Virus genome (UHGV): UHGV-0099905
Strand: one strand, 5' to 3'
Source: a virus
Length of the DNA stretch: 29,459 nt
In this document: positions 4,068-29,459 of the stretch, piece after piece
Numbering within the stretch: position 1 is the stretch's first letter
Layout of the letters: every line of letters starts with the position of its first letter
The notes under the pieces: generated by a model
Databases searched by the model: none
Told to the model about the DNA's origin: nothing
What the model saw: only the letters and a program-made list of their open reading frames with translations
Made by a program: the position numbers and the translations under genes

Positions 4068-4083
4068 GTACTTACTTATTAAT
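4068..4083. promoter_or_regulatory. Motif copy GTACTTACTTATTAAT upstream of the ligase operon
   Basis: Gene-oriented sequence AATAAGTAAGTAC lies 18-40 nt upstream of the ATG at 4049. Confidence 0.45.
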
Positions 4084-4982: not shown

Positions 4983-5004
4983 AATAAGTAAGTATCTACT
5001 TATT
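4983..5004. promoter_or_regulatory. Palindromic motif copy AATAAGTA-agtatc-TACTTATT
   Basis: 8-bp perfect inverted repeat, 6-bp spacer, 40-60 nt upstream of the ATG at 4942; a TATAAT hexamer abuts it in gene orientation. Confidence 0.55.
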
Positions 5005-6729: not shown

Positions 6730-7278
6730 ATGAAACGTTCAGTTATTGCGGCTACTGTATTAGCATCTCTTTTTATGAGCGCAGGATCATTTGCAGCAGA
6801 AGGGAGTACAGAGGGTCAGTTAACTATTAACGGTAAAGTCACAGAGACTACATGTCAGTTCCTGAGCGGTAGTGAGAATACAACAATTTCGATGAGCGAA
6901 ATTGGTCGTGATCAATTTGAAAATGTAGAAGTTGGCTCCCCCGTTACTACTTATTCAAATACAACATCTTTACCACTAAAAGTTAAGTGTACCGGAGGAA
7001 AAGAACCAAGAATTACCTTCTCCAGCACCCAATTTGAAGGAACGGATTCAAATATTATTCGCAATACTGGTGATGCTAGCGGTGTCGGTTTCGCTGTTTT
7101 TTTGGGGAAAGGTACTGATTCTAGCAACCGGATTTCTGGTAATAGACCTATTAAGTTAACACCAACTACTAATGGTGAACATGAGTTACATTTTACGGCA
7201 CAATACGCAAAAACAGCTGTTGATGTGGGTACTGGCGAAGTTAGTTCTGCGATAACAATGACCGTTGTAACAGATTAA
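6730..7278 (+). CDS. Fimbrial major subunit (chaperone-usher pathway)
   Basis: Signal peptide MKRSVIAATVLASLFMSAGSFA, about 180 aa, first in operon before chaperone and usher; AGGA SD upstream. Confidence 0.7.
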   Translation: MKRSVIAATVLASLFMSAGSFAAEGSTEGQLTINGKVTETTCQFLSGSENTTISMSEIGRDQFENVEVGSPVTTYSNTTSLPLKVKCTGGKEPRITFSSTQFEGTDSNIIRNTGDASGVGFAVFLGKGTDSSNRISGNRPIKLTPTTNGEHELHFTAQYAKTAVDVGTGEVSSAITMTVVTD

Positions 7279-7333
7279 CATGATGTTTATCGGCGGCTTC
7301 GGTCGCCGATTTTCAATCGCAAGGATTGTTATC

Positions 7334-8014
7334 ATGAAAAAATTAATAGCCTTCTTACTAACCGTAACGGTCCCATCTGCGTGGGGCGGTGTCTATATTT
7401 ACGGCACTCGCGTTATTTATCCGGAACAGAAAAAAGAGATTGCAGTTCAGTTAATGAATGAAGGTGAGCGTAGTGCTCTTGTTCAGTCGTGGATTGATGA
7501 TGGCGATGCCAGCCTTCCTCCGGAAAAGATTAGTGTACCTTTTGTGCTGACTCCACCGGTAGTTCATGTTAGTAAGGGTGAAGGACAGCAACTGAAAATT
7601 AAACAACTGGCGAACACTCTACCTAAAGATCGCGAAAGTCTGTTCTTCCTTAATGTACTGGATATTCCACCTAATAGTGAGAAATACGAAGGCAAGAATC
7701 TGATTAAATTCGCGATGCAAAATCGTATCAAATTTATTTATCGCCCAAAGGGTATAACAAGAGTCGATAAAGAGAGTTTTTCCCGGATTAATATCAGACC
7801 CGTTGATAGAGGCATTAACATAAAAAATAATTCAGCGAACTGGATAACCATTCCTGAATTAACCGGGAATGCGAAAATTAATAAGGAGACACTACTGCTG
7901 GCACCCTGGTCAGATCAGACTGTCAAAACGACATCCGTTGTTAACTATTACAATGTTACTCTGATTGATGATCATGGAAACTATTTGAGTGAAAAAATAA
8001 AAACTGCCAAATAG
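7334..8014 (+). CDS. Periplasmic fimbrial chaperone (PapD-like)
   Basis: Classic chaperone N-terminal pattern GVYIYGTRVIYPE...; start moved to ATG at 7334 (MKKLIAFLL signal peptide) behind AAGGA, rather than the track start at 7280. Confidence 0.85.
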   Translation: MKKLIAFLLTVTVPSAWGGVYIYGTRVIYPEQKKEIAVQLMNEGERSALVQSWIDDGDASLPPEKISVPFVLTPPVVHVSKGEGQQLKIKQLANTLPKDRESLFFLNVLDIPPNSEKYEGKNLIKFAMQNRIKFIYRPKGITRVDKESFSRINIRPVDRGINIKNNSANWITIPELTGNAKINKETLLLAPWSDQTVKTTSVVNYYNVTLIDDHGNYLSEKIKTAK

Positions 8015-8031
8015 ATTATCAGGGATTGGTT

Positions 8032-10518
8032 ATGTCAAAGTTTAATTCTATTACACTGGCTATTCTGTCAGTATTAGCGACTTCGCATACATGGGCTAAG
8101 GGTGAAACGTTTAATACCAATTTTATGATTGGTGGTTTAAATGGGGAGAAAATTTCTAACTACCATATTGATAGTGATAAGCCGATGCCGGGTATCTACG
8201 CTATGGATGTTTATCTGAATAATCAATGGCGTGGCCACTATGATATTGATATTAAAGATGACCCTAATGCAACATGTTTATCCATGGAGCAATTAAAGCA
8301 AATTGGGATCCTCACTGAAGGAATTAGTATCGATAAAGGCGTAGAATGTGTACCACTTCGGGATGCTGTCCAGGGAGGCAGCGTCGACTATGATATTGGG
8401 CATTTTAACCTAAAATTAAGCGTGCCCCAAGCCTATGTTCTGGAATATGAACATGGCTATGTTCCGCCTGAAGCATGGGATCGCGGGATTAACGCATTAT
8501 ATACATCTTATTATGCCAGTCAGTATTACAGTGATTATAAAAACGGCGGAGATGATAAAAGTAGCTATCTAAATCTGAACAGTGGGTTAAATCTCCTGGG
8601 CTGGCAGCTGCATTCAAATGCCAATTATACGAAAAGCGACGAAAACAGCGGTAAATGGAAGAGTAACACGCTATATCTGGAACGTGGAATTCCACAAATT
8701 CTCGGCACGTTTCGCGCAGGTGAAATGTATACTGGTTCTGATGTTTTTGACTCCGTGCGTTTTCGCGGCGTGCGCCTTTGGCGCGATATGCAGATGTTAC
8801 CGAACTCTAAACAGAATTTTACTCCTGTGGTACGCGGCGTTGCCCAGAGTAACGCACTCGTCACCATAGAACAAAATGGTTTTGTGGTTTACCAGAAAGA
8901 AGTACCGCCAGGCCCATTCGCCATTGATGATTTGCAACTTTCTAATGGTGGGGCAGATTTGGAAGTTATCGTCAAAGAAGCTGATGGTTCAACGTCGTAC
9001 TATCGGGTGCCTTATTCATCGGTGCCAAATATGTTGCAACCTGGCGTTTCTAAATATGAATTTTCAGCCGGACGTAGTCATATTGAAGGAGCCAGCAATC
9101 AATCTGATTTTATCCAGGGAAGCTATAAGCATGGTTTCAACAATTTGCTGACAGGTTATGGCGGCACGCTGTTATCTGATAATTACTCATCGTTTGTTCT
9201 TGGAACAGGATGGAATACACCGATTGGTGCTATATCGGTTGATTTTACCCATTCATACAGCAAGCAAGACAACGGTGATGTGTTTAACGGTCAAAGTTAT
9301 CAGATTGCCTGGAATAAATATCTCTCTCAGAGCGGAACACAATTTTCTCTGGCGGCCTGGCGTTATTCCTCTCGGGGTTATCGTACTTTTAACGATCATG
9401 TATGGGCAAATAACAAAAATAGATACAATCGAGAAGACAACTCAGGCTATGACATTGCCAACTACTACCAGTATGATTTTGGTCGCAAGAATAGCTTTTC
9501 TTTAAATATCAACCAGTCATTACCGGAAAATTGGGGGTATCTGGCGATCAGCGGTCAATGGCGAGATTACTGGGAACGTAGCGGGACAGGGAAAAATTAC
9601 CAACTAAGCTATACGAACTCATGGGAACGTCTAAGTTATACCTTGTCGGTTAGCCAGACATACGATGAGGATAACAGCGAAGACAGACGCATTAACTTAT
9701 TTTTCTCAATCCCCTTCTCGTGGCGTGATAATATCACCGAAAAACGACGAGATTTATTTATCTCTAACTCGACCACATTTGATAAAGACGGCTACCAGTC
9801 AAATACTACCAGCCTCAGTGGTGTAGCTGGGAACCGTGATCAGTTCAGCTACGGGGCTAACTTTAGCCATCAACAACAGGACAGCGAAGCAACAGCAGGT
9901 GGAAATCTGATTTGGCGTGCGCCAGTGGCTACCATTGGTGGCAGCTATAGCCAGTCGAAAAAATATCAACAGATAAGTGGTAATATTCAAGGTGGTTTAG
10001 TCGCGTGGTCAGACGGGATAGCACTGGCTCCCAGACTTTCAGATACATTTACCATCGTCCATGCTCCGGGGCTGGATGGGGCTGCGGTACAGGGGTATCG
10101 TTACCTGAGCACGGATAGCCGAGGTTACGCTATTTATGACAGCCTGACGCCGTATCGTAAAAACACGTTGATGCTGGATACTTCTGACAGTCAAAGCGAT
10201 GTGGCACTACTGGGCAACCGTAAAAGCACCGCTCCTTATCGTGGGGCCGTTGTGATGACGCAGTTTGATACTGACAAACGTAAACCCTGGTATTTCCTTG
10301 CTCAGCGCCCGGATGGTTCTCCATTATCGTTCGGTTATGAAGTTGAAGATGAAAGCGGTAAGAATGTGGGCTTGGTAGGACAGGGAAGTCGGATATTTAT
10401 TCGCACTGATGATGTTCCCGCATCGATTCGCGTCTCGGTTAATAAACAGCAGGAACAATTCTGTACTATTACCTTTGATAAAGTTATCGAAGAGAATAAA
10501 GTTTATATTTGTCGTTAA
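8032..10518 (+). CDS. Fimbrial outer-membrane usher
   Basis: About 830 aa, signal peptide, usher N-terminal FNTNF motif, beta-barrel-type composition; ATG at 8032 behind AGGGA. Confidence 0.9.
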   Translation: MSKFNSITLAILSVLATSHTWAKGETFNTNFMIGGLNGEKISNYHIDSDKPMPGIYAMDVYLNNQWRGHYDIDIKDDPNATCLSMEQLKQIGILTEGISIDKGVECVPLRDAVQGGSVDYDIGHFNLKLSVPQAYVLEYEHGYVPPEAWDRGINALYTSYYASQYYSDYKNGGDDKSSYLNLNSGLNLLGWQLHSNANYTKSDENSGKWKSNTLYLERGIPQILGTFRAGEMYTGSDVFDSVRFRGVRLWRDMQMLPNSKQNFTPVVRGVAQSNALVTIEQNGFVVYQKEVPPGPFAIDDLQLSNGGADLEVIVKEADGSTSYYRVPYSSVPNMLQPGVSKYEFSAGRSHIEGASNQSDFIQGSYKHGFNNLLTGYGGTLLSDNYSSFVLGTGWNTPIGAISVDFTHSYSKQDNGDVFNGQSYQIAWNKYLSQSGTQFSLAAWRYSSRGYRTFNDHVWANNKNRYNREDNSGYDIANYYQYDFGRKNSFSLNINQSLPENWGYLAISGQWRDYWERSGTGKNYQLSYTNSWERLSYTLSVSQTYDEDNSEDRRINLFFSIPFSWRDNITEKRRDLFISNSTTFDKDGYQSNTTSLSGVAGNRDQFSYGANFSHQQQDSEATAGGNLIWRAPVATIGGSYSQSKKYQQISGNIQGGLVAWSDGIALAPRLSDTFTIVHAPGLDGAAVQGYRYLSTDSRGYAIYDSLTPYRKNTLMLDTSDSQSDVALLGNRKSTAPYRGAVVMTQFDTDKRKPWYFLAQRPDGSPLSFGYEVEDESGKNVGLVGQGSRIFIRTDDVPASIRVSVNKQQEQFCTITFDKVIEENKVYICR

Positions 10519-10528
10519 AGGATTTTTT

Positions 10529-11539
10529 ATGAAGAAATATTGGTTTTTGTTTTTGTTGATTATTCCATTTTTTGGGCAGGCGAAATGTACCCCTAAGGGA
10601 ACTTGGACAGCAACTCAACCAATTACACTGGACTTAACAACGGATTCAACAATAGTAAGTTTTAATCCCAACCTGCAAGGATCTTATGAATGTAACTCGA
10701 GGGGGGATAAGATGTATTTTGCAACAACGTTAGATGACTATATTGTTGAAATGAAAGATGGCTCCAGCAATAAGTCTATTTTTATTAAATTAAAGCTTGA
10801 GGCTGATGGATTTCCTGTAGAAACGAGTGGTTCGCTTCTGTCGCCTAAAACCTATTCTGTTGCTGATACCATTAATAATAAACAACTGAAGTTAACGGCC
10901 TCATATATACCACCAACTAAATATAGAAGTGATCGTGGTGAAGCGGTAGAGGGGGATTCATTCGAATTGAAAAAAGCGGCGGCTAATTTTTTGTCTGATA
11001 ATACATGTAGTTCAAATATTCTTTCATGGATAGCATGCTATGTTTTTGGATTGTTAAATAAAGGTGAAGCTTACGAACAAAAACTAACCATTAATGTTAA
11101 ACACAAACCCACAACCTGTCGTTTCTCGCAACCGACTTACGAAATAAGAATACCAGAAACAACGATAAGTGAAATGCTATCTGCCAATAACTCAAAATCA
11201 GGTTCTGTAGATCTGGTCCTAAATTGCGATAGTGTCTATAACGTCACGACTAATCCAGTGACTTTTAAAGTTGAGCGTGGTGTGTGGGATGATAGTGGAA
11301 CAATATTGAAAAATACATTGTCCGATGGTGCTAAGGGTGTAGGGTTCCAGATTTACAATGGTAATGCAACGACACCGTTAAAGCTGGGCGATACCCTGAT
11401 GAACAGATTACCTAAAATGGCGGCTATTCAGGAGCAGTACATCTTCCCGATTACCGCAAAATACGTTCGCGTGAAAGAGGAAGCTTTACAGCCTGGGGAA
11501 GTTCAAGGCCAGGCGATATTTGCCGTATCCTACGACTAA
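10529..11539 (+). CDS. Fimbrial minor subunit / tip adhesin candidate (two-domain size, about 337 aa)
   Basis: Signal peptide MKKYWFLFLLIIPFFGQA starting at ATG 10529 after SD AAAGGA; the track start at 10409 overlaps the usher and is rejected. Confidence 0.6.
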   Translation: MKKYWFLFLLIIPFFGQAKCTPKGTWTATQPITLDLTTDSTIVSFNPNLQGSYECNSRGDKMYFATTLDDYIVEMKDGSSNKSIFIKLKLEADGFPVETSGSLLSPKTYSVADTINNKQLKLTASYIPPTKYRSDRGEAVEGDSFELKKAAANFLSDNTCSSNILSWIACYVFGLLNKGEAYEQKLTINVKHKPTTCRFSQPTYEIRIPETTISEMLSANNSKSGSVDLVLNCDSVYNVTTNPVTFKVERGVWDDSGTILKNTLSDGAKGVGFQIYNGNATTPLKLGDTLMNRLPKMAAIQEQYIFPITAKYVRVKEEALQPGEVQGQAIFAVSYD

Positions 11540-15128: not shown

Positions 15129-15854
15129 TCAACAGAATCGCCGTGCTTCTTCCAGTTCTTCCGGGAAGTGCGCGTAAATCACACGCTCAGGCACGATTTC
15201 CATCAACCAGACAGCGGAGAAGATGATACGGATGCGTTTATCTCGGGTAATGCCACGCAGACGCTCCAGAATCCACTCAAAATAGCGTTCCTGAATCGGG
15301 TCACGCTGCATGTCTCCAAGATGCTTAAAACTCACCAGAGAGTCATCCAGACGGGTTACAGCGCGTTTGGCTAACTTCTCTTCGAATATCTCGATCAACT
15401 CGGGCTGCCAGAGATGCTGGGGGCGCGGTAATTTGTCCCACAGCCGTCGTGCAGCTGCGGAAAGAACGGTGGAGATAAAGTAGTCGTATGAGCAGCAATA
15501 GCGGTCAGCAAACTGGCGTGCTTTCCAGAGCGACGTTTTGTTGACCGTCGACAACTCCTGATATGGCACACGCTTCAGACCGGTTGTGAATGGAGCCGTC
15601 TCATAGTGTTCACGACCATGCGACAGCATGATGTATGAGTACTGGCGCTTGTATGCCTCAGTGAAAAGGCATGTGGCCATAAGTGGGTGCATGTCGCGGT
15701 AATCAAACCACTTCGTCTCGAAGAGTTCAGCCTCGTCTTTACAGCGCGACAAACCAATGTTTTCAGCGACCCACTTGTCCATAACAGCGGTATTCCACTC
15801 TGTCATGAAATCGTACTGGTCATTGTCGATAGTGTTGAAGAAGATCTGGCTCAC
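15129..15854 (-). CDS. Hypothetical protein (241 aa), first gene of the helicase-primase operon
   Basis: ORF in track; GTG start at 15854 behind AAGGGA; motif copy immediately upstream. Confidence 0.55.
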   Translation of the reverse strand: MSQIFFNTIDNDQYDFMTEWNTAVMDKWVAENIGLSRCKDEAELFETKWFDYRDMHPLMATCLFTEAYKRQYSYIMLSHGREHYETAPFTTGLKRVPYQELSTVNKTSLWKARQFADRYCCSYDYFISTVLSAAARRLWDKLPRPQHLWQPELIEIFEEKLAKRAVTRLDDSLVSFKHLGDMQRDPIQERYFEWILERLRGITRDKRIRIIFSAVWLMEIVPERVIYAHFPEELEEARRFC

Positions 15855-15866
15855 ATGATTCCCTTT

Positions 15867-15890
15867 AATAGGTATGTACTTACTTATCTA
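15867..15890. promoter_or_regulatory. Motif copy AATAGGTATGTACTTACTTATCTA
   Basis: Near-identical to the copy at 24921-24944 (21 of 22 aligned positions); directly upstream of the replication operon. Confidence 0.55.
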
Positions 15891-15991
15891 AGTGAGCGAA
15901 TCATAGCGACTGGAGATATTTTTGGGAAGTGGAAACGGAAGGGAGTTGTTCTGGTGGGTGTCTTTTAAAAGACCTGCTTCCGTATATATTT

Positions 15992-16006
15992 AATAAGTTA
16001 CTTATT
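15992..16006. promoter_or_regulatory. Palindrome AATAAGT-T-ACTTATT in the AT-rich region upstream of the GIY-YIG gene
   Basis: 7-bp perfect inverted repeat with 1-bp spacer, same half-site as the other motif copies. Confidence 0.45.
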
Positions 16007-16136
16007 ATTTATATACAGAAACAGGCATAACTTGTCGTCTTAGACACCCAGAAGCTCTACACTTTGAGCCTGTAAAATTGATTAAAAACTTATGTGTAAA
16101 ATAGAACGCATTAGTCAGTAGCTAAGAGATGCAATA

Positions 16137-16904
16137 ATGGACGATTTATCGGTATACGCGAGATCATTGGATAAGGCTAAATACTATGTTTACTGTCTCT
16201 ATGATACAGAAGACAAGATGAAAAGACCGTTTTACATAGGAAAAGGCAAATCGACTCGTTGTCTCGATCACATCAAGTATCCCGATGACTCTCCCAAATC
16301 CATGCGGATCAAAGAACTTTTGGCTAATAAAAAATTAGGCATAGATATTCTTCGTCATGGTATGGATGAAACCACAGCCAAACTTGTTGAGGCGACATGC
16401 ATCGACCTTATGGGTGTCGGAGAGCTTACGAATAAGGTACGAGGAAGTGGTTCCATGATGGGCAGAATATCACTGGACGCCTACCATCACTTAGTGCTGC
16501 AAGAGGAAACTGAAATTGCTCCTGAGCACGCCGGTCTTGCCTTCCTGCTAAACAGCACCTACAAGTCAGGAATGTCCGCTCTGGCATTATATGAAGCTAC
16601 GCGTGGCGTATGGGCAAAGGTTCCAAGAGACGAGAATCTCAAATATGCCTACGCTACATATGGGGGCCTGATAATGGAAGTTTATCAGATTGAATGCTGG
16701 GTCAAAGCCGGTTCTCAGCAGTACTTTACAAGGGATATAGCTCTTGGCCCCGACACAAAACGTTATGAATTTGTTGGCAGAATAGCCGATGAGCATATTA
16801 GAAAACTGTATGTAGGCAAATTAATCAAGAAGCCACCAAGCTACGGCAGCCCTTTTGTGAAGGTTGGGGTGGTTAGGAATGAACATAGTGTTAGCGCGGC
16901 ATAA
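16137..16904 (+). CDS. GIY-YIG nuclease-domain protein with uncharacterised C-terminal domain
   Basis: N-terminal KYYVYCLYDTEDKMKRPFYIGKGKSTRCLDH fits the GIY...YIG...R...H pattern with a downstream Glu; about 170-aa C-terminal region of unknown fold. Confidence 0.6.
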   Translation: MDDLSVYARSLDKAKYYVYCLYDTEDKMKRPFYIGKGKSTRCLDHIKYPDDSPKSMRIKELLANKKLGIDILRHGMDETTAKLVEATCIDLMGVGELTNKVRGSGSMMGRISLDAYHHLVLQEETEIAPEHAGLAFLLNSTYKSGMSALALYEATRGVWAKVPRDENLKYAYATYGGLIMEVYQIECWVKAGSQQYFTRDIALGPDTKRYEFVGRIADEHIRKLYVGKLIKKPPSYGSPFVKVGVVRNEHSVSAA

Positions 16905-16959: not shown

Positions 16960-17316
16960 ACCTTTCTTCATCAACTCTCGTTTGATTTCATCGGTACGCA
17001 TCGTGACATCGGCAGCTGTGATCGCCTCGTTAAGTTTCACGATGTCCTCGATTTCCTGCGGTGACTTCTCTGCCAGATGGAAAATGGCTGCGCGAATCAC
17101 GTCAGAACGGGTGAACTTCTCGAAACGAGGGATGAACTTCATCATTTCCAGCAGTTCGAAGTATTCGTCCTCCAGTGACATTGTGCGGCTTTTAATTTTC
17201 TCTTTGCCACGAGTCGGGCGTCCCTGTGGTCTGACTGGTTGGCGCAAAGGAGTTGTGTTCTTGGCCGGTGCATCAGGCTCTTTGCGCTTTGCTAGGTCAC
17301 CCATTTTCATGGACAT
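16957..17316 (-). CDS. Putative partition adaptor / centromere-binding protein (small, basic N-terminus)
   Basis: 119 aa directly downstream of the ParA gene; K/R/P-rich N-terminal tail then helical domain; assignment by context only. Confidence 0.4.
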   Translation of the reverse strand: MSMKMGDLAKRKEPDAPAKNTTPLRQPVRPQGRPTRGKEKIKSRTMSLEDEYFELLEMMKFIPRFEKFTRSDVIRAAIFHLAEKSPQEIEDIVKLNEAITAADVTMRTDEIKRELMKKG

Positions 17317-17984
17317 TATTCTTCTTCCTCCAGACTCAACAGATAATCTACAAATTCTTCAAACTCGGCTTCCGCCTTTTTGTCGCGCTCGCTACCGGTC
17401 ATTTCAAAGATAGAACGACCAGACTCTTCCGCATCATCATAGACGTTGCGGTTATATAAATTGACTGGCGCAGACTCGATGCCAAACGTCTCGACAATCT
17501 CTTTAGCCGCCAAAATGCGAGACACTTGTGATGGCAAAGCCGGGCACTGGTTCATGACCGCGCGGACCTTCACTTTATCGTTTACATTACGAACATTGTC
17601 GATAATAGGATCGATGTCACGCAGAGATTTCAAATCACGACGCTTAGGACGAAGCGGGATAATGATAACGTCGGCCATCAGCATCGCTTGTCGCTGAATT
17701 TCGGAGTCAAAGCCACCAGCATCTACCACTACAAACTCAGCTCTACCCTGAAGCGATTTTAGGTGCTTAATGATGTCATCCTGAACGTATGCAAAAGGAA
17801 TCAGCTCAAGGTCTTCGTTCTGTCGACGGTCTTCACACCAGCTTGTTGTCGTGCGCTGAATATCTATATCAGTGATATAAACCTTCTTCTTCTTTTTGAC
17901 TTTCAGGCAAACGGCAATTTGCTGGGCAACAGTGGATTTGCCAGGCCCGCCCTTTGTGCCGCCAACCACAAAGATCTTGGTCAT
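17316..17984 (-). CDS. parA: ParA/Soj-family partition ATPase (small type)
   Basis: Deviant Walker A VVGGTKGGPGKST; 222 aa, typical of small ParA/ParF-like ATPases. Confidence 0.8.
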   Translation of the reverse strand: MTKIFVVGGTKGGPGKSTVAQQIAVCLKVKKKKKVYITDIDIQRTTTSWCEDRRQNEDLELIPFAYVQDDIIKHLKSLQGRAEFVVVDAGGFDSEIQRQAMLMADVIIIPLRPKRRDLKSLRDIDPIIDNVRNVNDKVKVRAVMNQCPALPSQVSRILAAKEIVETFGIESAPVNLYNRNVYDDAEESGRSIFEMTGSERDKKAEAEFEEFVDYLLSLEEEE

Positions 17985-20554: not shown

Positions 20555-20620
20555 GTTTTCCTCCATGAAAAGTCAAATCGGGATGGCGAATTTATACCAC
20601 AAATATTACCTTTTTTGTAG

Positions 20621-20632
20621 GTAAGTACTTAC
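20621..20632. promoter_or_regulatory. Perfect 12-bp palindrome GTAAGTACTTAC (motif copy) upstream of the lysis-like cassette
   Basis: Overlaps the stop codon of the Gly-rich gene; followed at about 25 nt by TGGTATAAAT. Confidence 0.5.
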
Positions 20633-21423
20633 ACACGAGAACCGTATATTGCTCCGACGGCGATCCATTGAGGGGCATTACCCATGACAGCAGCCCCAGC
20701 AGCCCCACCGCCATATCGATTTCCAGAGTTGCCATAACACGCTCCACCTGCCGCTCCAACATTGCCACCAGTACCGCCATGATTAGCGTTAACCCCAGAC
20801 CCAGTACCTGGAGCAGTAAGCGAAGCGGCCCCAGCAGCAGCACCACCATTGCCTGAATACCTACCTGCAGCACCAAATGGCCTGCCACCGCCACCACCTA
20901 CCAGATAGGCTCCGACAAAGCCGGCATCCCAATAGCCACCACCGCCACCACCGCCACCACCGCCACCACCGGCAATAGCACCATTATTGGTAATACGTAG
21001 TCTAGTTCCTATTGCATTCTTAATCGCGGCCCCACCAGCAGAACCCGCTGAGTTTGACCCGCCATTTCCTCCTCTCCCATATATGGTAACTCCACCATTA
21101 ATTACGAGGTTAATATATGAGTTTGATAAGTCACCAGGAAAGTCTAGGCAAGGGACTGTACTACTTGTAGAAACTAAATCCCCTGTAATAGTAACTACTA
21201 CAGGTGTAGAGCCAACAGAGCGTAAATATGATATTAATGTGTCTTTGTTATAATTGTGATTAGCCCCTATTGAGTAGTAAATCTCTTTTGACCTACCGGC
21301 CATCTGTGACATATTTCCTGCTGCCGACAATTGGACTGTGGTACGGGCAGCACTCATCCAACGTTGCCCTGTTTCGGAAACCGCTGATGATCCTATCCAT
21401 CCTGGAACATTTGAAATTGACAC
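20629..21423 (-). CDS. Glycine-rich protein (264 aa) downstream of the side tail fibre gene
   Basis: ORF in track; GTG start after GAGAGGG; central G12 run and GG/GN repeats; N-terminal non-repetitive domain. Confidence 0.6.
   Translation of the reverse strand: MSISNVPGWIGSSAVSETGQRWMSAARTTVQLSAAGNMSQMAGRSKEIYYSIGANHNYNKDTLISYLRSVGSTPVVVTITGDLVSTSSTVPCLDFPGDLSNSYINLVINGGVTIYGRGGNGGSNSAGSAGGAAIKNAIGTRLRITNNGAIAGGGGGGGGGGGGYWDAGFVGAYLVGGGGGRPFGAAGRYSGNGGAAAGAASLTAPGTGSGVNANHGGTGGNVGAAGGACYGNSGNRYGGGAAGAAVMGNAPQWIAVGAIYGSRV
20936..20973. repeat. Simple-sequence repeat (CCACCACCG)x4 encoding the poly-Gly run
   Basis: Seen directly; the 9-bp unit keeps the reading frame. Confidence 0.9.
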
Positions 21424-21485: not shown

Positions 21486-24400
21486 TCATATTTTTTGTTC
21501 AATGATTGCTGCCAGCTCTTTAACAGCCTCAATAAGAAGTGCTATTTGTGCAGAATTTGAAATAGTCAGAACATCTTCGCCATTTGCATCTTTGTAAGCT
21601 GAAACAGCTTCCGGTAAAACCTTTTGGAGTTCCTGAGCAACAACACCCGCCTCACGACGAACCGTACTAGATTGAAAATTTTCCTTTTTATCGTAAATTA
21701 ATCCGCTCAGTACTTTCACCTTACTCAGAGCATTTTTAATCGGTGCGAAGTTACTTTTAAGTCTGGCATCAGAGCGGATATAAACATCGTTAAAGTTACC
21801 ATTACCTCCACAAACCCAAGTACCATCATTTTGAAGATATGCGTTCGCATCCGTGCCATTCGCGGTACGTGAGTTGTTGATCATGTAAAAACCAAACTGA
21901 CTGTTTCCCAAGCCACCCACAAAGAATTTGCGATCCGCGTGGTCTTGTCTCAACAACGCTTGTGCAGAGCTTGTGCTTACAGCATTCTTCCCGAAGATGA
22001 CGTTCTGGCTCCGCATATCGATCCATGCGCCAGAACCGCTGTTGATAGAGTAGCTGTTGGCATAAACCCATGCACTTGACGTGATATCCCCCGTTACACT
22101 CAACGGCTTAAGGCTTTGCAACGTGCCATTAGTGAACCGAAAAACATGGGCATTATTTGCATAAACATCAAGAATGCCATCACCATTCTGTTTTAAGCCA
22201 GTATCATTATCGCCTAATACGATAGAGTTTCCGCCAAGCGCATTCGACACCCCTAATCCGACGCTACCGTTAATTACTGCCCCATTACTAATATCAACGC
22301 CATTTCCAAGTGTCACTCGTCCTGTTGTATTGCTAATATATAGTGGACGTAAAGGTCCCCAACTTCCATGTTGATCACCTGAATTTGTCAACAGAAAGTA
22401 AGTATTCGCCCCATCATTTCGAATGAAGAAGCCATAATTCCCATATACTGCACGGAAAGCATTTGCTGTTTCGGAAACCACCTCTCCATTTATACTCATT
22501 GTAATAGTATTGTCAGTGTTTCTCTGACTGTAAAAGTGATAGCCTTGATCGTCTTTGAATTCAATTACCGTTGGCCTTGAAGAATTTCCCCATACCTGCA
22601 TATAAGTATTCAGTGACGGAGTTTCAGTAGTCTGCACCCTGAATACTTTCCCGTTTGAATTTTGAAATCCAAGTGACCCGGTTAAAGTTCCTCCGGTTAA
22701 TTTCAAAAAGAGTGCATCAATCCATCCAGCGAAACCCGGTTTATTGATATACACGTTGCCATCATTGGCAAATATACCACCACCAGGTGATCTTAATGGC
22801 TGCGACATATTCGCCAAAGTCAATTGGCCTGACATTGAATCGCCAGCTCGATTAAAGTCGCGCCTCCAGCCTGGCGCATAAGAGTCACCGTGGTTGATGT
22901 AGGTAAACTGAGCCTTGACGGTTCCGCCATTCGTTGCCGTCGTGGGGGTAGTGACGCGAATCGTCATAGCATCCCGAACCCCCATAACTTCAACTACAGC
23001 GCCAGCGAGTTGTATATTCCCACAACCGGTATCCGTGATGATTTTATTGGCAGCGTAAGACCAAGAGCCTTTGCACATCCAGTATGGATAATTGAATGCC
23101 CCCTGAGACTCCAACCACTCAATAAATTGCGCCGTCGTCCAGTTGTTGCTGTCTCCCCCAATACTGATACTGCCGCCAGCAGCTTTCGCTGCGCCAATAT
23201 TTTTTGCGAAGGTGTCTTTGCTAGGTATATCCGCGCCATTCTGGTCTTTCCGAAGGCGTGTTTCAGCATTGTCGTATGCGGCCTTCACGGCCTTTGATGT
23301 GGCCGCATAACTTTCACTGCTATTGTTGGTATCACTGTTAAGCTGAACAAGCCCCTTTTGCGACGTGGTGGCGTCCTGTGCAGTGTATTTGCCATTAGCA
23401 AGATCATATGCTGTCTTTACTGCTTTTGGGGTGGCTGCAAATGACTCCGATTCGCTATTAGTTGAGCTACTAAGTTGTACTATTCCCTTATTCGTCGTGC
23501 TTGCATCCTCAAGCGCCACGGCGGATGCAATATCCTCAGCTCGTTTTGCCGCTGTCTCAGAGCGTGTTGCCGCGGATTCTGCCGCATTTTTGCTCTGCGC
23601 AGCCGCCGTCGCACTGTCTGCCGCTTCCGTCGCCTTCGTTGATGCCGTTGTCGCACTCTCTGCTGCCGCTGACGCCTGGCGAGCGGCCTCATCTTTTGAA
23701 GATGACGCCGAGGAAGCTGAAACAGAGGCAGAGCTTGCAGATTCGGCTGCTGTCTCCTTAGAAGCAGCGGCATTGTCTTCTGAAGTCTTTGCATTGGTTT
23801 CAGAAGATTTTGCCGCCTCTGCTGACTTTTCCGCAGCTGTTGCCTGTTTCGTCGCCTCTGTCGCTTTAGCGGTGGCATTTGCCGCGGATAACGAAGCGCT
23901 TTCCGCAGACTTTTCTGCCGACGTTGCACTTGATGAAGCACTATCCGCGCTTACTGAGGCCGCGCTCGCTGACGTTTCTGCCGCAGATTTCGAACTGTTT
24001 GCAGACAATGCACTCTGTTCGGCAGCAGATTCAGACGCTTTTGCGTTTGTCTCTGATGCTTTTGCTGCCTTACATGAATTTGCAGCTTCTGTAGCTGATG
24101 ATGCTGCCGCGTTTGCACTCGATGAAGCGTTAGTCTCTGATAATTTAGCCGCATCCTTAGATGCAGAGGCACTGGACGCTGATGTGGCTGCCTCCGATGC
24201 TTTAGTCGACGCCACAGATGCTGATTCTGCTGCCGCTTCTTTTGCCGCTTCTGCGTTTGTTTCAGATTTTTCCGCAGCAGCTGCACTCTCACTCGCCGCA
24301 CTTTGTGAAGATACCGCAGCGGATGCACTTTGAGATGCCTGAGAGGCTTTTTCTACAGCAGTGTTGGCACTTTCTGCCGCAGCGACAGCACTGGCCGCCG

Positions 24401-24875
24401 CCTCCCGAGCTTTGTCTCCAGCGGCCTCAATCGCATCGGTGTTATTTTTATACCACTCAACGTTTTCGTTATGCTCGTTGACGATCTGCATTAGCGGCTT
24501 AACGGTCACTTCTGTACCGTCTTCACGCTCGATTGTCACATCATCCAGAGCGGTCAACCAACTGCGCATGGACTTGGAATCAGCCGACATACGCGACATT
24601 AGTGCAGTAAAGCGCGCACTAAACTGAGTTAAGTCGCCTTCATAGGTCGTAATGATTCGGCACGGAACTTTAGATTGAGTTTCGCCGGTATAAGGTTCTG
24701 AGAGGACAATGACCGTATCACTGGTTACGCGCTTGACCTCATACAACTTATTGTCAGGACCAATGACAATCATGCCCGGTAACACGCCGTTTTCGGTCAA
24801 ATTCCAACGTGTTCCGATGCCTGATATTGTGTCGCTTCCTTTTGTAAATGTAACAGTACCTTCCCTGTACCACAT
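21486..24875 (-). CDS. Side tail fibre protein (lambda Stf-like) with Ala/Ser-rich coiled-coil region, phage fibre repeats and C-terminal S74-type intramolecular chaperone
   Basis: KRAEDIASAVALEDASTTNKGIVQLSSSTNSESESFAATPKAVK closely matches the lambda Stf repeat as recalled; C-terminal SDARLK...VLPEAV chaperone/autocleavage pattern; start moved to ATG 24875 behind AAGGAG (the track ORF begins 31 codons upstream). Confidence 0.85.
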   Translation of the reverse strand: MWYREGTVTFTKGSDTISGIGTRWNLTENGVLPGMIVIGPDNKLYEVKRVTSDTVIVLSEPYTGETQSKVPCRIITTYEGDLTQFSARFTALMSRMSADSKSMRSWLTALDDVTIEREDGTEVTVKPLMQIVNEHNENVEWYKNNTDAIEAAGDKAREAAASAVAAAESANTAVEKASQASQSASAAVSSQSAASESAAAAEKSETNAEAAKEAAAESASVASTKASEAATSASSASASKDAAKLSETNASSSANAAASSATEAANSCKAAKASETNAKASESAAEQSALSANSSKSAAETSASAASVSADSASSSATSAEKSAESASLSAANATAKATEATKQATAAEKSAEAAKSSETNAKTSEDNAAASKETAAESASSASVSASSASSSKDEAARQASAAAESATTASTKATEAADSATAAAQSKNAAESAATRSETAAKRAEDIASAVALEDASTTNKGIVQLSSSTNSESESFAATPKAVKTAYDLANGKYTAQDATTSQKGLVQLNSDTNNSSESYAATSKAVKAAYDNAETRLRKDQNGADIPSKDTFAKNIGAAKAAGGSISIGGDSNNWTTAQFIEWLESQGAFNYPYWMCKGSWSYAANKIITDTGCGNIQLAGAVVEVMGVRDAMTIRVTTPTTATNGGTVKAQFTYINHGDSYAPGWRRDFNRAGDSMSGQLTLANMSQPLRSPGGGIFANDGNVYINKPGFAGWIDALFLKLTGGTLTGSLGFQNSNGKVFRVQTTETPSLNTYMQVWGNSSRPTVIEFKDDQGYHFYSQRNTDNTITMSINGEVVSETANAFRAVYGNYGFFIRNDGANTYFLLTNSGDQHGSWGPLRPLYISNTTGRVTLGNGVDISNGAVINGSVGLGVSNALGGNSIVLGDNDTGLKQNGDGILDVYANNAHVFRFTNGTLQSLKPLSVTGDITSSAWVYANSYSINSGSGAWIDMRSQNVIFGKNAVSTSSAQALLRQDHADRKFFVGGLGNSQFGFYMINNSRTANGTDANAYLQNDGTWVCGGNGNFNDVYIRSDARLKSNFAPIKNALSKVKVLSGLIYDKKENFQSSTVRREAGVVAQELQKVLPEAVSAYKDANGEDVLTISNSAQIALLIEAVKELAAIIEQKI

Positions 24876-24895
24876 GTTCTTTTTCACTCCTTGAA

Positions 24896-24919
24896 GTGTG
24901 GGCGTCCCCCCGCCCACAC
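24896..24919. other. GC-rich hairpin (9-bp stem GTGTGGGCG / CGCCCACAC, 6-nt loop) in the 5' leader of the tail-fibre gene
   Basis: Seen directly between the motif copy and the RBS. Confidence 0.5.
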
Positions 24920-24920
24920 A

Positions 24921-24944
24921 AATAGGTATATACTTACTTATTAT
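24921..24944. promoter_or_regulatory. Motif copy AATAGGTATATACTTACTTATTAT
   Basis: Near-identical to the 15867-15890 copy; 45-70 nt upstream of the tail-fibre ATG. Confidence 0.55.
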
Positions 24945-25012
24945 CCATGATACAAAATCCTTTTGCACTAAGAAAACACGCTATATACATTGCTGCTCAT
25001 TATTCCTATCAA

Positions 25013-26533
25013 TTAACTGATGCCCGACATGGAAAATGCGCCACTTCCACGGCTGATTAGCATCACGGGCGAATAAATATGTGTCTGTGATGAACTGGTC
25101 ACTTTTACCGTAACAGCAACAGTTCTTGAGGTAACATTGTTAAAAGCAGCGTAAAGAGTGCCACCGACGCCTGTAGAACTTGTCGAATTAAGATCAGGGT
25201 CTCTGTATGTTGCCCCCTTACCAGTGGTTGCGGTCTTCGTCACTCCATTGCAGGTAAATTGGGCTGCAACAGGGCCGACGCCCCCCGTATATACATTTAT
25301 TGCCACATAAATATTTTTGGGCAATGCAGACGAAGAAGAGTCTGTATATGTCATTGTATATGTGCCGTTGTAACGAACTGAGAAGTCATTGCCCACATAC
25401 ATGTTAGCGACATCGCCTACGAAGTGATCTGCTTGTACCGTGCCTCTGAATGTTCCGCTGGTAGCCTGTATTTCTCCTGTGAATTTGCCATTCGTTGCGT
25501 AAACGGTGCCTCTAACAGTTACATTGTTAAACTCTGAGTTCCCGTTTTTATTAATATGCCACCCCGTCATCCCGCTTGAGTAATCGTTGGACTGAATGAA
25601 GTTGCCTATTTTGGCGTTATCAATGGTGCCGTTCTTGATATAAGCTCCGTTCATATAAGCCACACCGGCATCAATAACGAATGGCGTTGTAATTTTCCCA
25701 TTAACGGAGTTCACCAAACCAAAGCGATCTGCCTGCACCAAAAACTGCGATAGACCTGTTGTGTCGATGCCCAACGCTATGCCGGCAACATATTTTTGGC
25801 CTCCGCTGGTGGAGGTTTCCATTTTCAGCGTCCAGGCTGTTGATACCTTCTTGTTCGTATCAGCAATAGCTGTGGCCTGTTGTTGAATTGTTGCTGTATT
25901 TCCATCTACTGATGCTTTTAAGGTGTCAACTCTCCCACTTAGTGCATTGTCGGCGCTTGACGCATCAAACGTCACCTTGAAGCGCATCGTCTGGTGTTCA
26001 GCGCCGACTCGCTCGGTTTTCTCGCGTTTGTCCTCATCGACCGGCTCGTCATCGCCACGGGAGAGCGCTTCCAGCGCTTCAAGATCGATAACGGACGCTT
26101 TGGCGAGTGTTGCCGCCATTTCGTCGTCATACGGGGCGATATCGGACAACCGGTAGTCGATTTCAGACTGGATTTCTTCGATTAAGCGCTGCAAAGCGAC
26201 CTGATCGTCTTCGCCGTAGCGCTCGTTGTCGACGAGGGAAATCTGTTTAGCCACCAGATCGTTAATTTTGCCCACGGAGATGACGGGAACCGTTGAAATG
26301 CCCTGCTCCATCGCGGCACGCCAGCGGTGTTCACCACCGAGGATCTCAAAAATGCCCCCGTCCAACTCCCGCGCCAGAATTGGCTTAAAAAAGCCCAATT
26401 TTTCGATAGAGCCTTTCAGTTTTTCGAAGTTTTGCGCCCCAACGGAGTTGGTATTCCAGGGATTCGGACGCAGGTTCGCGACTTCCACCTGCAGAATCGT
26501 AATTTTCACACCCATAATTCTGATACAATCCAT
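25013..26533 (-). CDS. Chimeric protein: N-terminal ParB/Srx-like nuclease domain fused to a lambda J-type (host-specificity / tail-tip) C-terminal region
   Basis: N-terminal LRPNPWN...ILGGEHRWRAA resembles ParB box motifs; an acidic linker follows; the C-terminal half (FLVQADRFGLVNSVNGKITTPFVIDAGVAYMNGAYIKNGTIDNAKIG...) resembles the C-terminal receptor-binding part of J-like proteins; single uninterrupted ORF. Confidence 0.55.
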   Translation of the reverse strand: MDCIRIMGVKITILQVEVANLRPNPWNTNSVGAQNFEKLKGSIEKLGFFKPILARELDGGIFEILGGEHRWRAAMEQGISTVPVISVGKINDLVAKQISLVDNERYGEDDQVALQRLIEEIQSEIDYRLSDIAPYDDEMAATLAKASVIDLEALEALSRGDDEPVDEDKREKTERVGAEHQTMRFKVTFDASSADNALSGRVDTLKASVDGNTATIQQQATAIADTNKKVSTAWTLKMETSTSGGQKYVAGIALGIDTTGLSQFLVQADRFGLVNSVNGKITTPFVIDAGVAYMNGAYIKNGTIDNAKIGNFIQSNDYSSGMTGWHINKNGNSEFNNVTVRGTVYATNGKFTGEIQATSGTFRGTVQADHFVGDVANMYVGNDFSVRYNGTYTMTYTDSSSSALPKNIYVAINVYTGGVGPVAAQFTCNGVTKTATTGKGATYRDPDLNSTSSTGVGGTLYAAFNNVTSRTVAVTVKVTSSSQTHIYSPVMLISRGSGAFSMSGIS

Positions 26534-26535
26534 TG

Positions 26536-26553
26536 TATAAGTACTTACTTACC
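26536..26553. promoter_or_regulatory. Motif copy TATAAGTACTTACTTACC (contains palindrome TAAGTACTTA) in the divergent intergenic region
   Basis: Lies 3 nt from the ATG of the minus-strand gene and about 45 nt upstream of the plus-strand helicase ATG. Confidence 0.5.
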
Positions 26554-26597
26554 ATAATAGCCAATTACCATACAAAAGGCACGAAGGAAAGAGGTTT

Positions 26598-28157
26598 ATG
26601 ACAGTTCGGATTGTATCGAATGCAGTCAATGCGCTGATTTCTAGCGCTGATGACAACGTGAAGCGGCTCGTTCAGGAGATGTTGAGCTATGAAGTGGAGG
26701 CTGGGGACTGGAAAGGAACCAGCACGATGTTCAACTGGAGCAAAAACGCGTTCCCGGCTGGGTTTGCGAAGCCAGTTGCAGCCAACCTTCTGAAAGCTGG
26801 CATCAAATGCGTGCATGTGCGCAAGGAAAAAGCTCCCGCGCTGGGCAAGCCGAACCCGGTAGTTAACCCATTCCCGTATAACCCGGACTATGCGTATCAG
26901 GATCAGACAGTGGAAACACTGGTGCGCGAAGGGATGATGATTGCCCAGATTGCGACGGGTGGCGGTAAATCGAACGTAGCGTGTAAGGCTGCTGCTCGCA
27001 TTGGTCGTATGACGCTGTTTTTAACCACGCGATCGGTTCTGATGTTCCAGATGGCAGAGAACTTCCAGAAATCCATCGACTACCGCGCGGAGAATGGCGA
27101 GCCGTGGCTGAAAGGTCAGAGAGTTGGGGTGATTGGATCGGGTGAGTTCCAGGTCTCGCGCCATATCAACGTTGCCACGGTGCAGACCCTGGCCAGTTTT
27201 CTCGAAGAGCCACCGCGCGACGCATCACCGGAGAAAAAACAGTACCACCTGAAGCGCCGGGAACTGGTTAAACGCTTCCTGTCCAGCGTTTCTCTGCTGA
27301 TTCTGGAAGAGGCACACGAATCATCTGGTTCTAACTTCTACGACATCGCCCGGTTGTGCATCAATGCCGACTACCGTCTGGCGCTGACAGCTACGCCGTT
27401 CATGAAGGACTCGACTGAAGCAAATATGCGTCTCATGGCCGTTGCGGGTCGCATCGAGATAAAAGTAACGGAGAAATATTTGATCGACAGAGGTATTTTA
27501 GCGAAACCATACTTTTTATATCATAAAATCGCGTACACTCCAGATGAGGCGCGGATTAGAGCCGAACTTGCTTCAAAACACCTGAATTTTCGGGTTGGAA
27601 TGAGCACGGCTTACCAGAAAGCCTATCAGTTAGGCATCGTCTATAATCTGGGCCGCAACGAAGCTATTGTGCGTGAAGCGCTAATGTACAAGAGTCACGG
27701 TCTGAACTGTATGACATTGGTTCGTCTGAAGCGTCATGGTCAGATCTTGATGGAAATGATGAAAGAGAGTGGCCTCAAGGTCGATTTCATCTACGGAGAA
27801 TCAAACCAGACTACCCGACAAGCAAAACTTAATAGTCTGGCGGCAGGCAAGATAGATGTTCTCATTGGTTCAACCATTCTGGATGTTGGTGTCGACGTTC
27901 CAAGCGTAGGCGCGGTGATTCTGGGTGGTGGCGGGAAAGCAGAAGTTGAAATGAGACAGCGTGTCGGTCGTGGCTTACGAGCCAAGAAAAATCAGGCTAA
28001 CGTGTGCTTTATTACCGACTTCATCGACGTGAGCAACAAATACCTCATGTCGCATTCATATGAGCGGAAACACATTATCGACACGACGCCTGGGTTTGCC
28101 GAGGGGGTCTTGCCGGTTGGCAGCACATTCGATTTCACTGTTTTGGATAGAGAGTAA
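26598..28157 (+). CDS. Superfamily II DNA/RNA helicase (DExH-type variant)
   Basis: Motif I QIATGGGKSN, motif II LLILEEAHE, motif III LTATPF, motif VI QRVGRGLR. Confidence 0.8.
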   Translation: MTVRIVSNAVNALISSADDNVKRLVQEMLSYEVEAGDWKGTSTMFNWSKNAFPAGFAKPVAANLLKAGIKCVHVRKEKAPALGKPNPVVNPFPYNPDYAYQDQTVETLVREGMMIAQIATGGGKSNVACKAAARIGRMTLFLTTRSVLMFQMAENFQKSIDYRAENGEPWLKGQRVGVIGSGEFQVSRHINVATVQTLASFLEEPPRDASPEKKQYHLKRRELVKRFLSSVSLLILEEAHESSGSNFYDIARLCINADYRLALTATPFMKDSTEANMRLMAVAGRIEIKVTEKYLIDRGILAKPYFLYHKIAYTPDEARIRAELASKHLNFRVGMSTAYQKAYQLGIVYNLGRNEAIVREALMYKSHGLNCMTLVRLKRHGQILMEMMKESGLKVDFIYGESNQTTRQAKLNSLAAGKIDVLIGSTILDVGVDVPSVGAVILGGGGKAEVEMRQRVGRGLRAKKNQANVCFITDFIDVSNKYLMSHSYERKHIIDTTPGFAEGVLPVGSTFDFTVLDRE

Positions 28158-28497: not shown

Positions 28498-28920
28498 ATG
28501 AAACACGTATTACTTCCTCTGGTTGCTGCCTCCGCGTTACTTATCACTGCATGTCAATCTCGTCCTATTCCTGTCTCTGAGGCAAAGCCAGCACCGCAGA
28601 CCAGAATATTCAAATACCAATCTCCGGCGGCATCGACGCTGGTGGTTATGAGAGATAAAAGCATGGTGGGCGCCGGTTGCGACGCATCGATCTTCATCAA
28701 TGGCGAAACCGTTGCAAAACTGGAAACAGGTGAAAAAGTCACTTTTCATCTGGATGCCGGAGAATGGATTGTTGGCGCCTCACTCGAAGACGCTGGGCTG
28801 TGCGCACTGAATCCTGCTCGTCAGGAACGCGAGACGATTACCAAAGCTGGCGAGACGAAAGTCTTCCGGGTGTTCACCAGTAATGCTGGTGACATCGATA
28901 TCTTACCAACGACACTGTGA
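28498..28920 (+). CDS. Lipoprotein (about 140 aa precursor)
   Basis: Signal peptide MKHVLLPLVAASALLITAC with lipobox; start placed at ATG 28498 rather than the track start 28462. Confidence 0.6.
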   Translation: MKHVLLPLVAASALLITACQSRPIPVSEAKPAPQTRIFKYQSPAASTLVVMRDKSMVGAGCDASIFINGETVAKLETGEKVTFHLDAGEWIVGASLEDAGLCALNPARQERETITKAGETKVFRVFTSNAGDIDILPTTL

Positions 28921-28924
28921 CGAT

Positions 28925-29092
28925 ATGACGAATATTACTGACATCACCTACGGGATTCCTGCAGAAGTCTGGCCGCGCGATTACACCAACGTGGAGAAAG
29001 CGCTGATGTTCTGGCGCAAGTCTCTTATTCCTGTAAGGGTCACGATGGAAGATGGTCAGGTGTTCTGCATGTATGTTCAGGGTCTCATGTAG
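28925..29092 (+). CDS. Small hypothetical protein (55 aa)
   Basis: ATG 5 nt after the lipoprotein stop; no recognisable motif. Confidence 0.3.
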   Translation: MTNITDITYGIPAEVWPRDYTNVEKALMFWRKSLIPVRVTMEDGQVFCMYVQGLM

Positions 29093-29095
29093 TGG

Positions 29096-29459
<364 letters not shown>

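Follow-up and report, generated by a model that had tools for sequence, protein, structure and literature searches.

Background

In Salmonella phage SSU5 and in the SSU5-like phage-plasmid pEC21Z137-115K (NZ_CP101235.1), the intact gene order runs through a divergent helicase gene, ParB-like gene 1, ParB-like gene 2 and the gene of an ATP-binding protein. Three small or ATPase-like genes, a small-terminase-like DNA-binding protein, the large terminase, the portal and the capsid genes come next, and the order is completed by the head-tail and tube genes, the tape measure, M, L, K, I, J and the tail fibre. In such elements, ParB-like gene 1 heads the late region as the first of two tandem ParB-like genes ahead of the terminase genes, and stands apart from the ParA-like gene (near 17316-17984 of the stretch studied here). 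Phage-plasmids of the P1-like type are known to become resistance plasmids through the loss of phage genes (PMC10879196).

The window, by which we mean the whole stretch of 29,459 nucleotides analysed here (UHGV virus genome UHGV-0099905), is alike in backbone genes and their order to SSU5 and the SSU5-like phage-plasmids of Enterobacteriaceae such as pEC21Z137-115K, with 98-99 % identity. On one side of the locus of interest it has in common with them the helicase followed by the divergent ParB-like gene, and on the other the 3' end of J, the fibre, adhesin and lysis genes, TacAT, the ParA-like and DnaB-like genes and the primase. Unlike these elements, it lacks a 23.8-kb packaging, head and tail module, and in pLAO59, the best-matching plasmid, it is embedded in a resistance plasmid. 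The window is a remnant of an SSU5-like phage-plasmid that is carried inside multidrug-resistance plasmids. As in the P1-like cases (PMC10879196), virion genes are lost, the phage cycle would no longer be completed, resistance is gained and the plasmid persists; in contrast to them, the DNA is of SSU5 type and its replicon is IncY (P1-type). In the literature, no description of the present junction was found.

Where the module is missing, parts of two phage genes are joined in a single open reading frame (ORF). Judging from the comparisons described below, this ORF very probably arose when an SSU5-like phage-plasmid underwent one illegitimate deletion, which makes it a recombination relic. It adds one more case to a familiar process, ordinary genome decay, and is no designed chimeric protein.

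Two halves of the chimeric ORF

The ORF (25013..26533, minus strand) combines ParB-like gene 1 with the 3' end of a J-like tail-tip gene. An earlier note, made from the letters alone, had described it as one uninterrupted frame in which a ParB/Srx-like domain is fused to a J-like fragment, and both statements hold. The frame runs from the ATG at 26533 to the stop at 25013 without interruption, giving 506 aa from the first ATG, and the two assignments are upheld by profile searches as well as by sequence matches to the PDB. In Pfam, aa 14-103 score 48.6 bits for ParB_N (PF02195; E 8.5e-13, cut-off 26.3), and aa 215-350 match Phage_Tail_Tip (PF09327; E 5.2e-46) over profile positions 1-138 of 139. 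PHROGs assigned phrog_723 (ParB-like, E 5.5e-73, covered by the ParB part at positions 5-205 of 223) and phrog_31 (central tail fiber J). Among PDB sequences, the N-terminal side matched N-terminal domains of the Spo0J/ParB/Noc type, including Spo0J 1vz0 and ParB 6t1f, and the C-terminal side matched residues 839-1027 of lambda gpJ (8iyk_J, E 7e-13).

The ParB-derived segment (25960..26533, minus strand) corresponds to codons 1-191 of the 232 codons of the SSU5_125 orthologue. Of residues 1-192 of the ORF, 191 are the same as in SSU5_125, a ParB-like protein of 232 aa from Salmonella phage SSU5; the identity stops at residue 192, and the last 41 codons of the ParB-like gene are absent or replaced. 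At the DNA level, the first 576 nt are 98.3 % identical to the SSU5_125 gene, and the segment is 99.9 % identical to positions 28663-29355 of the intact relative L007. The likeness to Spo0J/ParB/Noc proteins lies in the ParB_N domain with its box-II-like motif GEHRWRA (aa 67-73, read from the translation), which is of the GERRxRA type with the first Arg changed to His. No parS site was identified. Compared with proteins that carry the ParB/Srx N-terminal domain, the chimera has its last 41 ParB-like residues replaced, and a complete 232-aa ParB-like protein, as found in intact relatives, is absent from the ORF. The acidic middle region, taken in the earlier note for a linker, is native ParB-like sequence (aa 104-191 of the 232-aa protein).

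The J-derived segment (25013..25959, minus strand) corresponds to residues 1210-1524 of a 1524-aa J-like protein together with its stop codon, and contains the last coiled repeat, the central-fibre domain (PF09327) and the C-terminal domain. Residues 192-506 of the ORF are identical to residues 1210-1524 of the J-like protein of pEC21Z137-115K (1524 aa) at 309 of 315 positions (98 %), with a DNA identity to the intact relative of 99.1 % on the J side. More broadly, many E. coli SSU5-like plasmids have a 4.6-kb J-like gene, annotated 'phage tail protein', whose 3' end is matched by nt 571-1521 of the ORF with an identity of at least 99 %. J residues 1-1209 are missing from the chimera. The earlier note had put the missing body of J at roughly 900 aa; the body is indeed absent, but the actual loss amounts to 1209 of 1524 aa. 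Among Pfam profiles, neither of the hub-forming N-terminal domains Phage-tail_3 (PF13550) and FNIII-A_GpJ (PF24801) was detected in the ORF, whereas both are present in full-length J-like relatives of 1524-1526 aa. The J-associated tail-tip genes L, K and I were found neither in the window nor in pLAO59, and are located in the deleted interval of the relative. The chimera resembles lambda gpJ (1132 aa) in its C-terminal half, which carries PF09327 and aligns to gpJ 839-1027, and differs from it in lacking the N-terminal hub-forming domains and the L, K and I partners.

The true start of the product is probably M7 (ATG at 26515) and not the first ATG, so that the product would measure 500 aa. 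In relatives, the conserved M(G/D)VKITILQ is preceded by MDCIRI-, MYCIKN- or MQWIVSKS-, and the frame of the MQWIVSKS- variant differs from that of the window upstream of M7; it is this difference in frame among relatives that favours M7. In RefSeq/PGAP the locus appears as two partial pseudogenes, one a fragment of ParB/RepB/Spo0J and the other of DUF1983, and PGAP flags the ParB part as 'frameshifted', including in an intact relative. A lesion inside the ParB domain was considered as the cause of this flag and set aside: the ParB part is collinear with SSU5_125 and free of gaps, and the variable, probably non-coding stretch before M7 accounts for the flag instead.

The deletion junction and the lost virion module

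The halves of the ORF are collinear with two separate, near-identical genes of intact relatives, and the DNA that lies between those genes is missing. On comparing the window with pEC21Z137-115K by BLAST, the J-side match was found to extend up to 25963 and the ParB-side match to begin at 25958, with the two breakpoints separated by 23,764 bp in pEC21Z137-115K. The ends of these pieces, together with a three-way comparison of the window, intact J and intact ParB, place the deletion junction at 25958..25963. The recombination relic proposed in the earlier note as one of several possibilities thus agrees with what is observed, as the halves are 98-99 % identical to genes 23.8 kb apart and the virion module between them is gone. 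One deletion joined ParB-like codon 191/192 to J-like codon 1210; the in-frame outcome would be a matter of chance, with a likelihood of 1 in 3.

At the joint itself, TG is exactly common to both parents (2 bp of microhomology), and if a one-base slip is allowed the shared stretch reads TGACGC against TG(T)ACGC (6 of 7 bp). The 8-bp sequence TGTCGGCG is present a few bases upstream of the joint in both parents. Insertion-sequence DNA was not detected at the joint. Short microhomology combined with a joint free of insertion sequences is the signature of an illegitimate, microhomology-level deletion, and recombination of this kind (2-6 bp) was probably the source of the event. Deletion mediated by an insertion sequence was rejected, since the joint carries no such DNA and the IS421 element seen in one copy lies downstream of the still-intact ORF.

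The lost 23.8-kb interval comprises the second parB-like gene, two ATPase-like genes, both terminases, the portal, capsid, head-tail and tail-tube genes, the tape measure, L, K, I and the first 1209 codons of J. The terminase, portal, major capsid, tail-tube and tape-measure genes of a functional SSU5-like phage-plasmid are accordingly missing from the window and from pLAO59. When this interval was searched by blastn against the window and the entire pLAO59, the only matches were to a 57-bp palindromic repeat, which indicates that the packaging, head and tail genes were lost and not relocated. The element would be incapable of packaging DNA or building a virion, and would survive only as plasmid cargo.

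Recurrence of the junction in a single lineage

At least seven complete plasmids of 85-324 kb, from E. coli or Enterobacter, carry the same junction base for base; their sources are humans, cattle, chickens, frogs, sediment and air, and they come from Laos, Vietnam and China. The whole 1521 nt occur in one piece only in five PLSDB plasmid records and six complete E. coli genomes. The copies of the junction are 99.7-100 % identical to each other and constitute one near-clonal lineage. Seven substitutions separate them, four synonymous and three non-synonymous, which are too few for decay or purifying selection to be read from them; four of the seven form one tract in the J 3' end of a single copy and match the allele of an intact relative. 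In one of the copies, IS421 is inserted downstream of the ORF.

A search of 5.8 billion protein clusters recovered one cluster with the ParB–J architecture (P0001, 70 members). Its sequence is 500 aa long, starts at M7 and is 100 % identical to the window product, and its members come from independent read-set assemblies. No diverged ParB–J fusion was present among the 5.8 billion clusters. The idea of a conserved fusion architecture was therefore dropped: the other two-half matches of the protein search are plain J fragments or different fusions of the ParB N-terminus, and the comparison with related elements recommended in the earlier note reveals a fusion confined to one lineage, 99.7-100 % identical. 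That the joint is an assembly artefact in which unrelated contigs were connected at a short repeat, a concern of the earlier note to which the shortness of the exact overlap lends some substance, has to be rejected, as separate studies in several countries have recovered the junction base for base in seven complete plasmids, and it recurs in many read-set assemblies.

Upstream motif and possible expression

A family-specific intergenic motif, TAAGTAAGTANNTAC, is located just 5' of the ORF (26537..26552, minus strand), and a second copy lies 51 nt 5' of the start of the tail-fibre gene (24926..24940, minus strand). The earlier remark that a motif copy abuts the ATG proved accurate, and sites like TAAGTAAGTANNTAC are far from random, with 16 matches against 0.47 expected. 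The copy 5' of the ORF could be a promoter or operator of what used to be the late operon. A simple scan of 24700-26700 for sigma-70-type promoters yielded none, a result that is uninformative on expression either way. If the native upstream signals fire, a cytoplasmic protein of 500-506 aa would be made, consisting of the ParB N-terminal domain, the acidic middle region native to the ParB-like protein and the distal J fibre. Having no tail to attach to and no known role, such a product, if made, would most likely be inert and awaiting decay.

Could the chimera be functional?

A challenge to the reading as a relic is that each of the seven complete copies has the frame uninterrupted, and that the native 5' region with the family motif is retained, so that a chimeric protein might be expressed. 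A selected and functional protein could account for this, for example one in which a trimerising distal J fibre is coupled to a ParB-type CTP-binding or nuclease fold. Such a protein might bind DNA as a new factor, or act as a dominant-negative partner that co-assembles with J when SSU5-like phages superinfect. The intact frame in every copy examined, the retained upstream motif and the spread of the lineage over plasmids of 85-324 kb, humans, livestock, frogs, sediment and air would all be in keeping with it. Nevertheless we regard a selected function as very unlikely. The two halves are almost identical to the parental genes, which points to a recent event with no time for visible selection, and the carrier resistance plasmid accounts for the spread. 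The fusion is limited to one junction lineage, and the protein has neither a signal peptide nor tail-hub domains that could position the J fragment usefully. The genuine chimeric protein envisaged in the earlier note is further undermined by an independent ParB–J joint that is out of frame, and by the many fusions of the ParB N-terminus to unrelated partners, which look like deletion noise.

The independent joint is found on plasmid p1 of strain cM2a, where a different ParB–J deletion spans 23,950 bp with a 3-bp overlap. There the ParB frame meets a stop directly past the joint, and the remaining part of J is out of frame with it. As cM2a p1 keeps fewer ParB codons and more J codons than the window junction, neither junction is derivable from the other. 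A third truncation of the ParB-like gene occurs on pB379_2, where it is joined to an SSU5_129-like gene, and a second deletion is seen further on in the same plasmid.

Beyond the window product, public protein data contain nine or more proteins in which this ParB N-terminus is fused in frame to something else; the partners include tail protein L, TerL (four breakpoints), the portal, an SSU5_129-like protein, a tail-fibre C-terminus and an endolysin-like protein. The fusion to L adjoins the helicase gene in an SSU5-like context on contigs of up to 92 kb, and is represented in 112 blocks of the collection. These fusions to varied late proteins are clearly deletion products. Fusion proteins of the ParB N-terminus in public databases should accordingly be read as the outcome of deletions and not as new architectures. 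The value of the present case is cautionary and one of bookkeeping, in that a striking two-domain ORF can be an in-frame deletion scar, and no long-standing question is opened by it.

Proposed interference with related phages or a proposed deletion hotspot

Two further proposals, to which even jointly we assign a similarly slight chance, invoke an expressed chimera that disturbs related phages, or a hotspot for deletions in the ParB-like gene. Under the first, the chimera would be made from the late-region signals still in place and would have been co-opted: its trimerising distal J-fibre part would join the full-length J of superinfecting SSU5-like phage-plasmids and poison their tail tips, and, together with the orphan fibre and adhesin genes, the carrier plasmid would exclude intact relatives. 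Under the second, which is the weaker variant, the 5' part of the ParB-like gene would be a preferred endpoint, for instance because it lies near a packaging or nuclease site, and this would account for the abundance of ParB N-terminal fusions.

The three junction types in complete plasmids (window, cM2a and pB379_2) and at least ten fusion proteins speak for a hotspot. The searches that recovered the fusions were anchored on ParB, and the resulting ascertainment bias explains at least part of this apparent abundance. Breakpoints in the ParB fusions are spread over approximately aa 68-216, and other remnants (H139, H138) end in the ATPase gene or in TerL, so deletion endpoints are not confined to the ParB-like gene. 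A hotspot is on these grounds not established. As for how often the region is broken, in 210 of the 252 complete E. coli genomes that match the module 80 % or more of the 25-kb interval is found at a single location, and in some of the remaining genomes it is divided only because the circular record begins within it.

Proposed exchange of a tail-fibre cassette

The joint could alternatively mark the exchange of a tail-fibre or host-range cassette, in which the C-terminus of J and the fibre alleles are swapped. The J 3' end and fibre region of this family is mosaic, with a J part that shares 99 % identity with plasmids more diverged on the ParB side; fibre genes of differing length are found among the plasmids that share the junction, and the tract of four SNPs in the J 3' end of one copy matches another allele. 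The partner at the joint, however, is the ParB-like gene, which lies 23.8 kb away in collinear relatives and is no alternative tail module. Since J is connected here to a gene that is not a tail gene, the cassette-exchange junction suggested in the earlier note does not fit. The lost DNA is replaced by nothing, so that any exchange would be additional to the deletion, and a complete J with an alternative N-terminal body beside the ParB-like gene was seen in 0 of the 252 E. coli genomes with the module. We regard an exchange as the origin of the joint as very unlikely too, and a deletion scar continues to be the preferred interpretation.

The remnant and its carrier plasmid

Homology to intact relatives extends from approximately 1191 to approximately 29090 of the window, giving a remnant of about 28 kb whose edges are breaks associated with insertion sequences. 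A fragment of an IS3-family transposase (29096..29455, minus strand) marks its right end. On the ParB side, the backbone flank is kept in the form of the divergent DEAD/DEAH helicase gene (26598..28157, plus strand). The remnant also keeps a chaperone-usher fimbrial operon, the Phd/Doc and TacAT toxin-antitoxin pairs, the ParA-like ATPase, DnaB-like helicase, primase and ligase-like genes, the lysis cassette, and the tail-fibre and adhesin genes.

In pLAO59, an IncY RepA with ParA/ParB is present, and IncY is the only replicon typed by PLSDB. The plasmid carries the resistance genes tet(A), tet(M), aadA2, lnu(F), qnrS1, blaTEM-1, sul3 and mef(B), along with mer and sil operons and many copies of IS26, the antibiotic- and metal-resistance DNA amounting to about 70 kb. 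The IncY replicon and the resistance region together indicate that the SSU5 DNA is cargo. SSU5-type phage-plasmids, as the P1-type ones before them, can thus decay into plasmid cargo, and in this instance the remnant travels with multidrug-resistance plasmids.

The earlier note had expected an Stf-like gene after the ORF. A tail-fibre gene does follow, but it encodes a T-even-like long fibre accompanied by a gp38 adhesin and not a lambda Stf/Tfa pair. This intact orphan gene (21486..24875, minus strand; 1129 aa from the PGAP start; WP_033546631.1, 'tail fiber protein') shows the Pfam domains Phage_fiber_2, Gp34_trimer and Peptidase_S74. The adhesin gene, likewise an intact orphan, is of the gp38 type (20629..21423, minus strand; Pfam GP38 at 2e-70, and Gp38_N). 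The fibre gene varies in length among plasmids with the same junction.

Fusions and mosaics of decayed modules

The ParB-like N-terminus of the fusion ORF is not confined to this remnant; public databases contain in-frame fusions of it to at least nine further late proteins (P0003, P0005, P0008, P0013, P0021, P0030, P0034, P0036 and P0078 from the protein-cluster search; loci L015 and L016-L018). The partners are L, TerL (four times), portal, a protein like SSU5_129 of Salmonella phage SSU5, a tail-fibre C-terminus and an endolysin-like protein, and the ParB-side breakpoints are spread across about residues 68-216. The ParB–L fusion is widespread, occurring in 112 collection blocks. The number of such fusions may reflect either a deletion hotspot in the ParB-like gene or ascertainment bias. 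P0079 (821 aa) is a triple mosaic: the N-terminus of the tape measure is joined to a piece from the middle of J and to J's final 70 residues. It comes from a further decayed tail module of SSU5-like type, in which it shows several internal deletions.

Translation start and upstream motif

Between the first ATG of the fusion ORF (26533) and the conserved ATG (26515), the reading frame varies between relatives (window 26515-26540), so translation probably begins at M7, the seventh residue of the ORF. The same variation explains why the ParB-like gene is labelled 'frameshifted' by PGAP even in intact plasmids, which is an annotation effect.

The motif copy pointed out in the earlier note is borne out as a member of a repeated, partly palindromic intergenic motif, TAAGTAAGTANNTAC, with the core TAAGTACTTA, for which 16 overlapping matches were counted in the window at two or fewer mismatches against 0.47 expected. 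Its seven intergenic sites (1376-1397, 4068-4082, 4985-5002, 15869-15890, 20617-20635, 24926-24940 and 26537-26552) all lie 5' of minus-strand genes, at 4-51 nt from the start of the gene downstream, and in SSU5-like elements the motif may serve as a promoter or operator specific to the family.

Another palindromic element, of 57 bp (window 15972-16026), lies between two divergently oriented genes, 15129-15854 (minus strand) and 16137-16904 (plus strand). A second copy, 89% identical, is located at about 25737-25793 of the intact-relative locus L007, within the interval deleted from the window and 5' of a small-terminase-like gene. The element may serve as a binding site, or may be related to pac or resemble parS.

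Tail-fibre region and accessory genes

Among plasmids with the identical deletion joint, the tail-fibre gene (window 21486-24875) varies in length (3390, 3072-3153 or 2715 nt), and at the 3' end of J (25178-25262) pHNAH968 has a four-SNP tract matching the allele of the intact relatives; taken together, these differences suggest that the fibre region recombined after the deletion. Inside the fibre gene, a low-complexity, repetitive stretch rich in Ala, Ser, Glu and Thr (23365-24333, minus strand; about residues 180-480 of the protein) gives rise to spurious ORFs of considerable length, both in the other frames and on the complementary strand. Tandem 9-nt GCCACCACC repeats at 20881-20979, within the gp38-type adhesin gene, encode glycine runs when read on its coding strand and look slippage-prone.

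A complete chaperone-usher fimbrial operon (window 6730-11539), comprising a YehD-like subunit, a chaperone, an usher and a second fimbrial protein, sits within the SSU5-like backbone and is common to the intact relatives.

The best-matching carrier plasmid, pLAO59 (NZ_OP242238.1; loci L008, L009 and L001), combines an IncY (P1-type) RepA/ParAB replicon with the SSU5-type remnant, so that DNA of two phage-plasmid families is present in one resistance plasmid, together with about 70 kb of IS26-rich antibiotic, mercury and silver resistance DNA.
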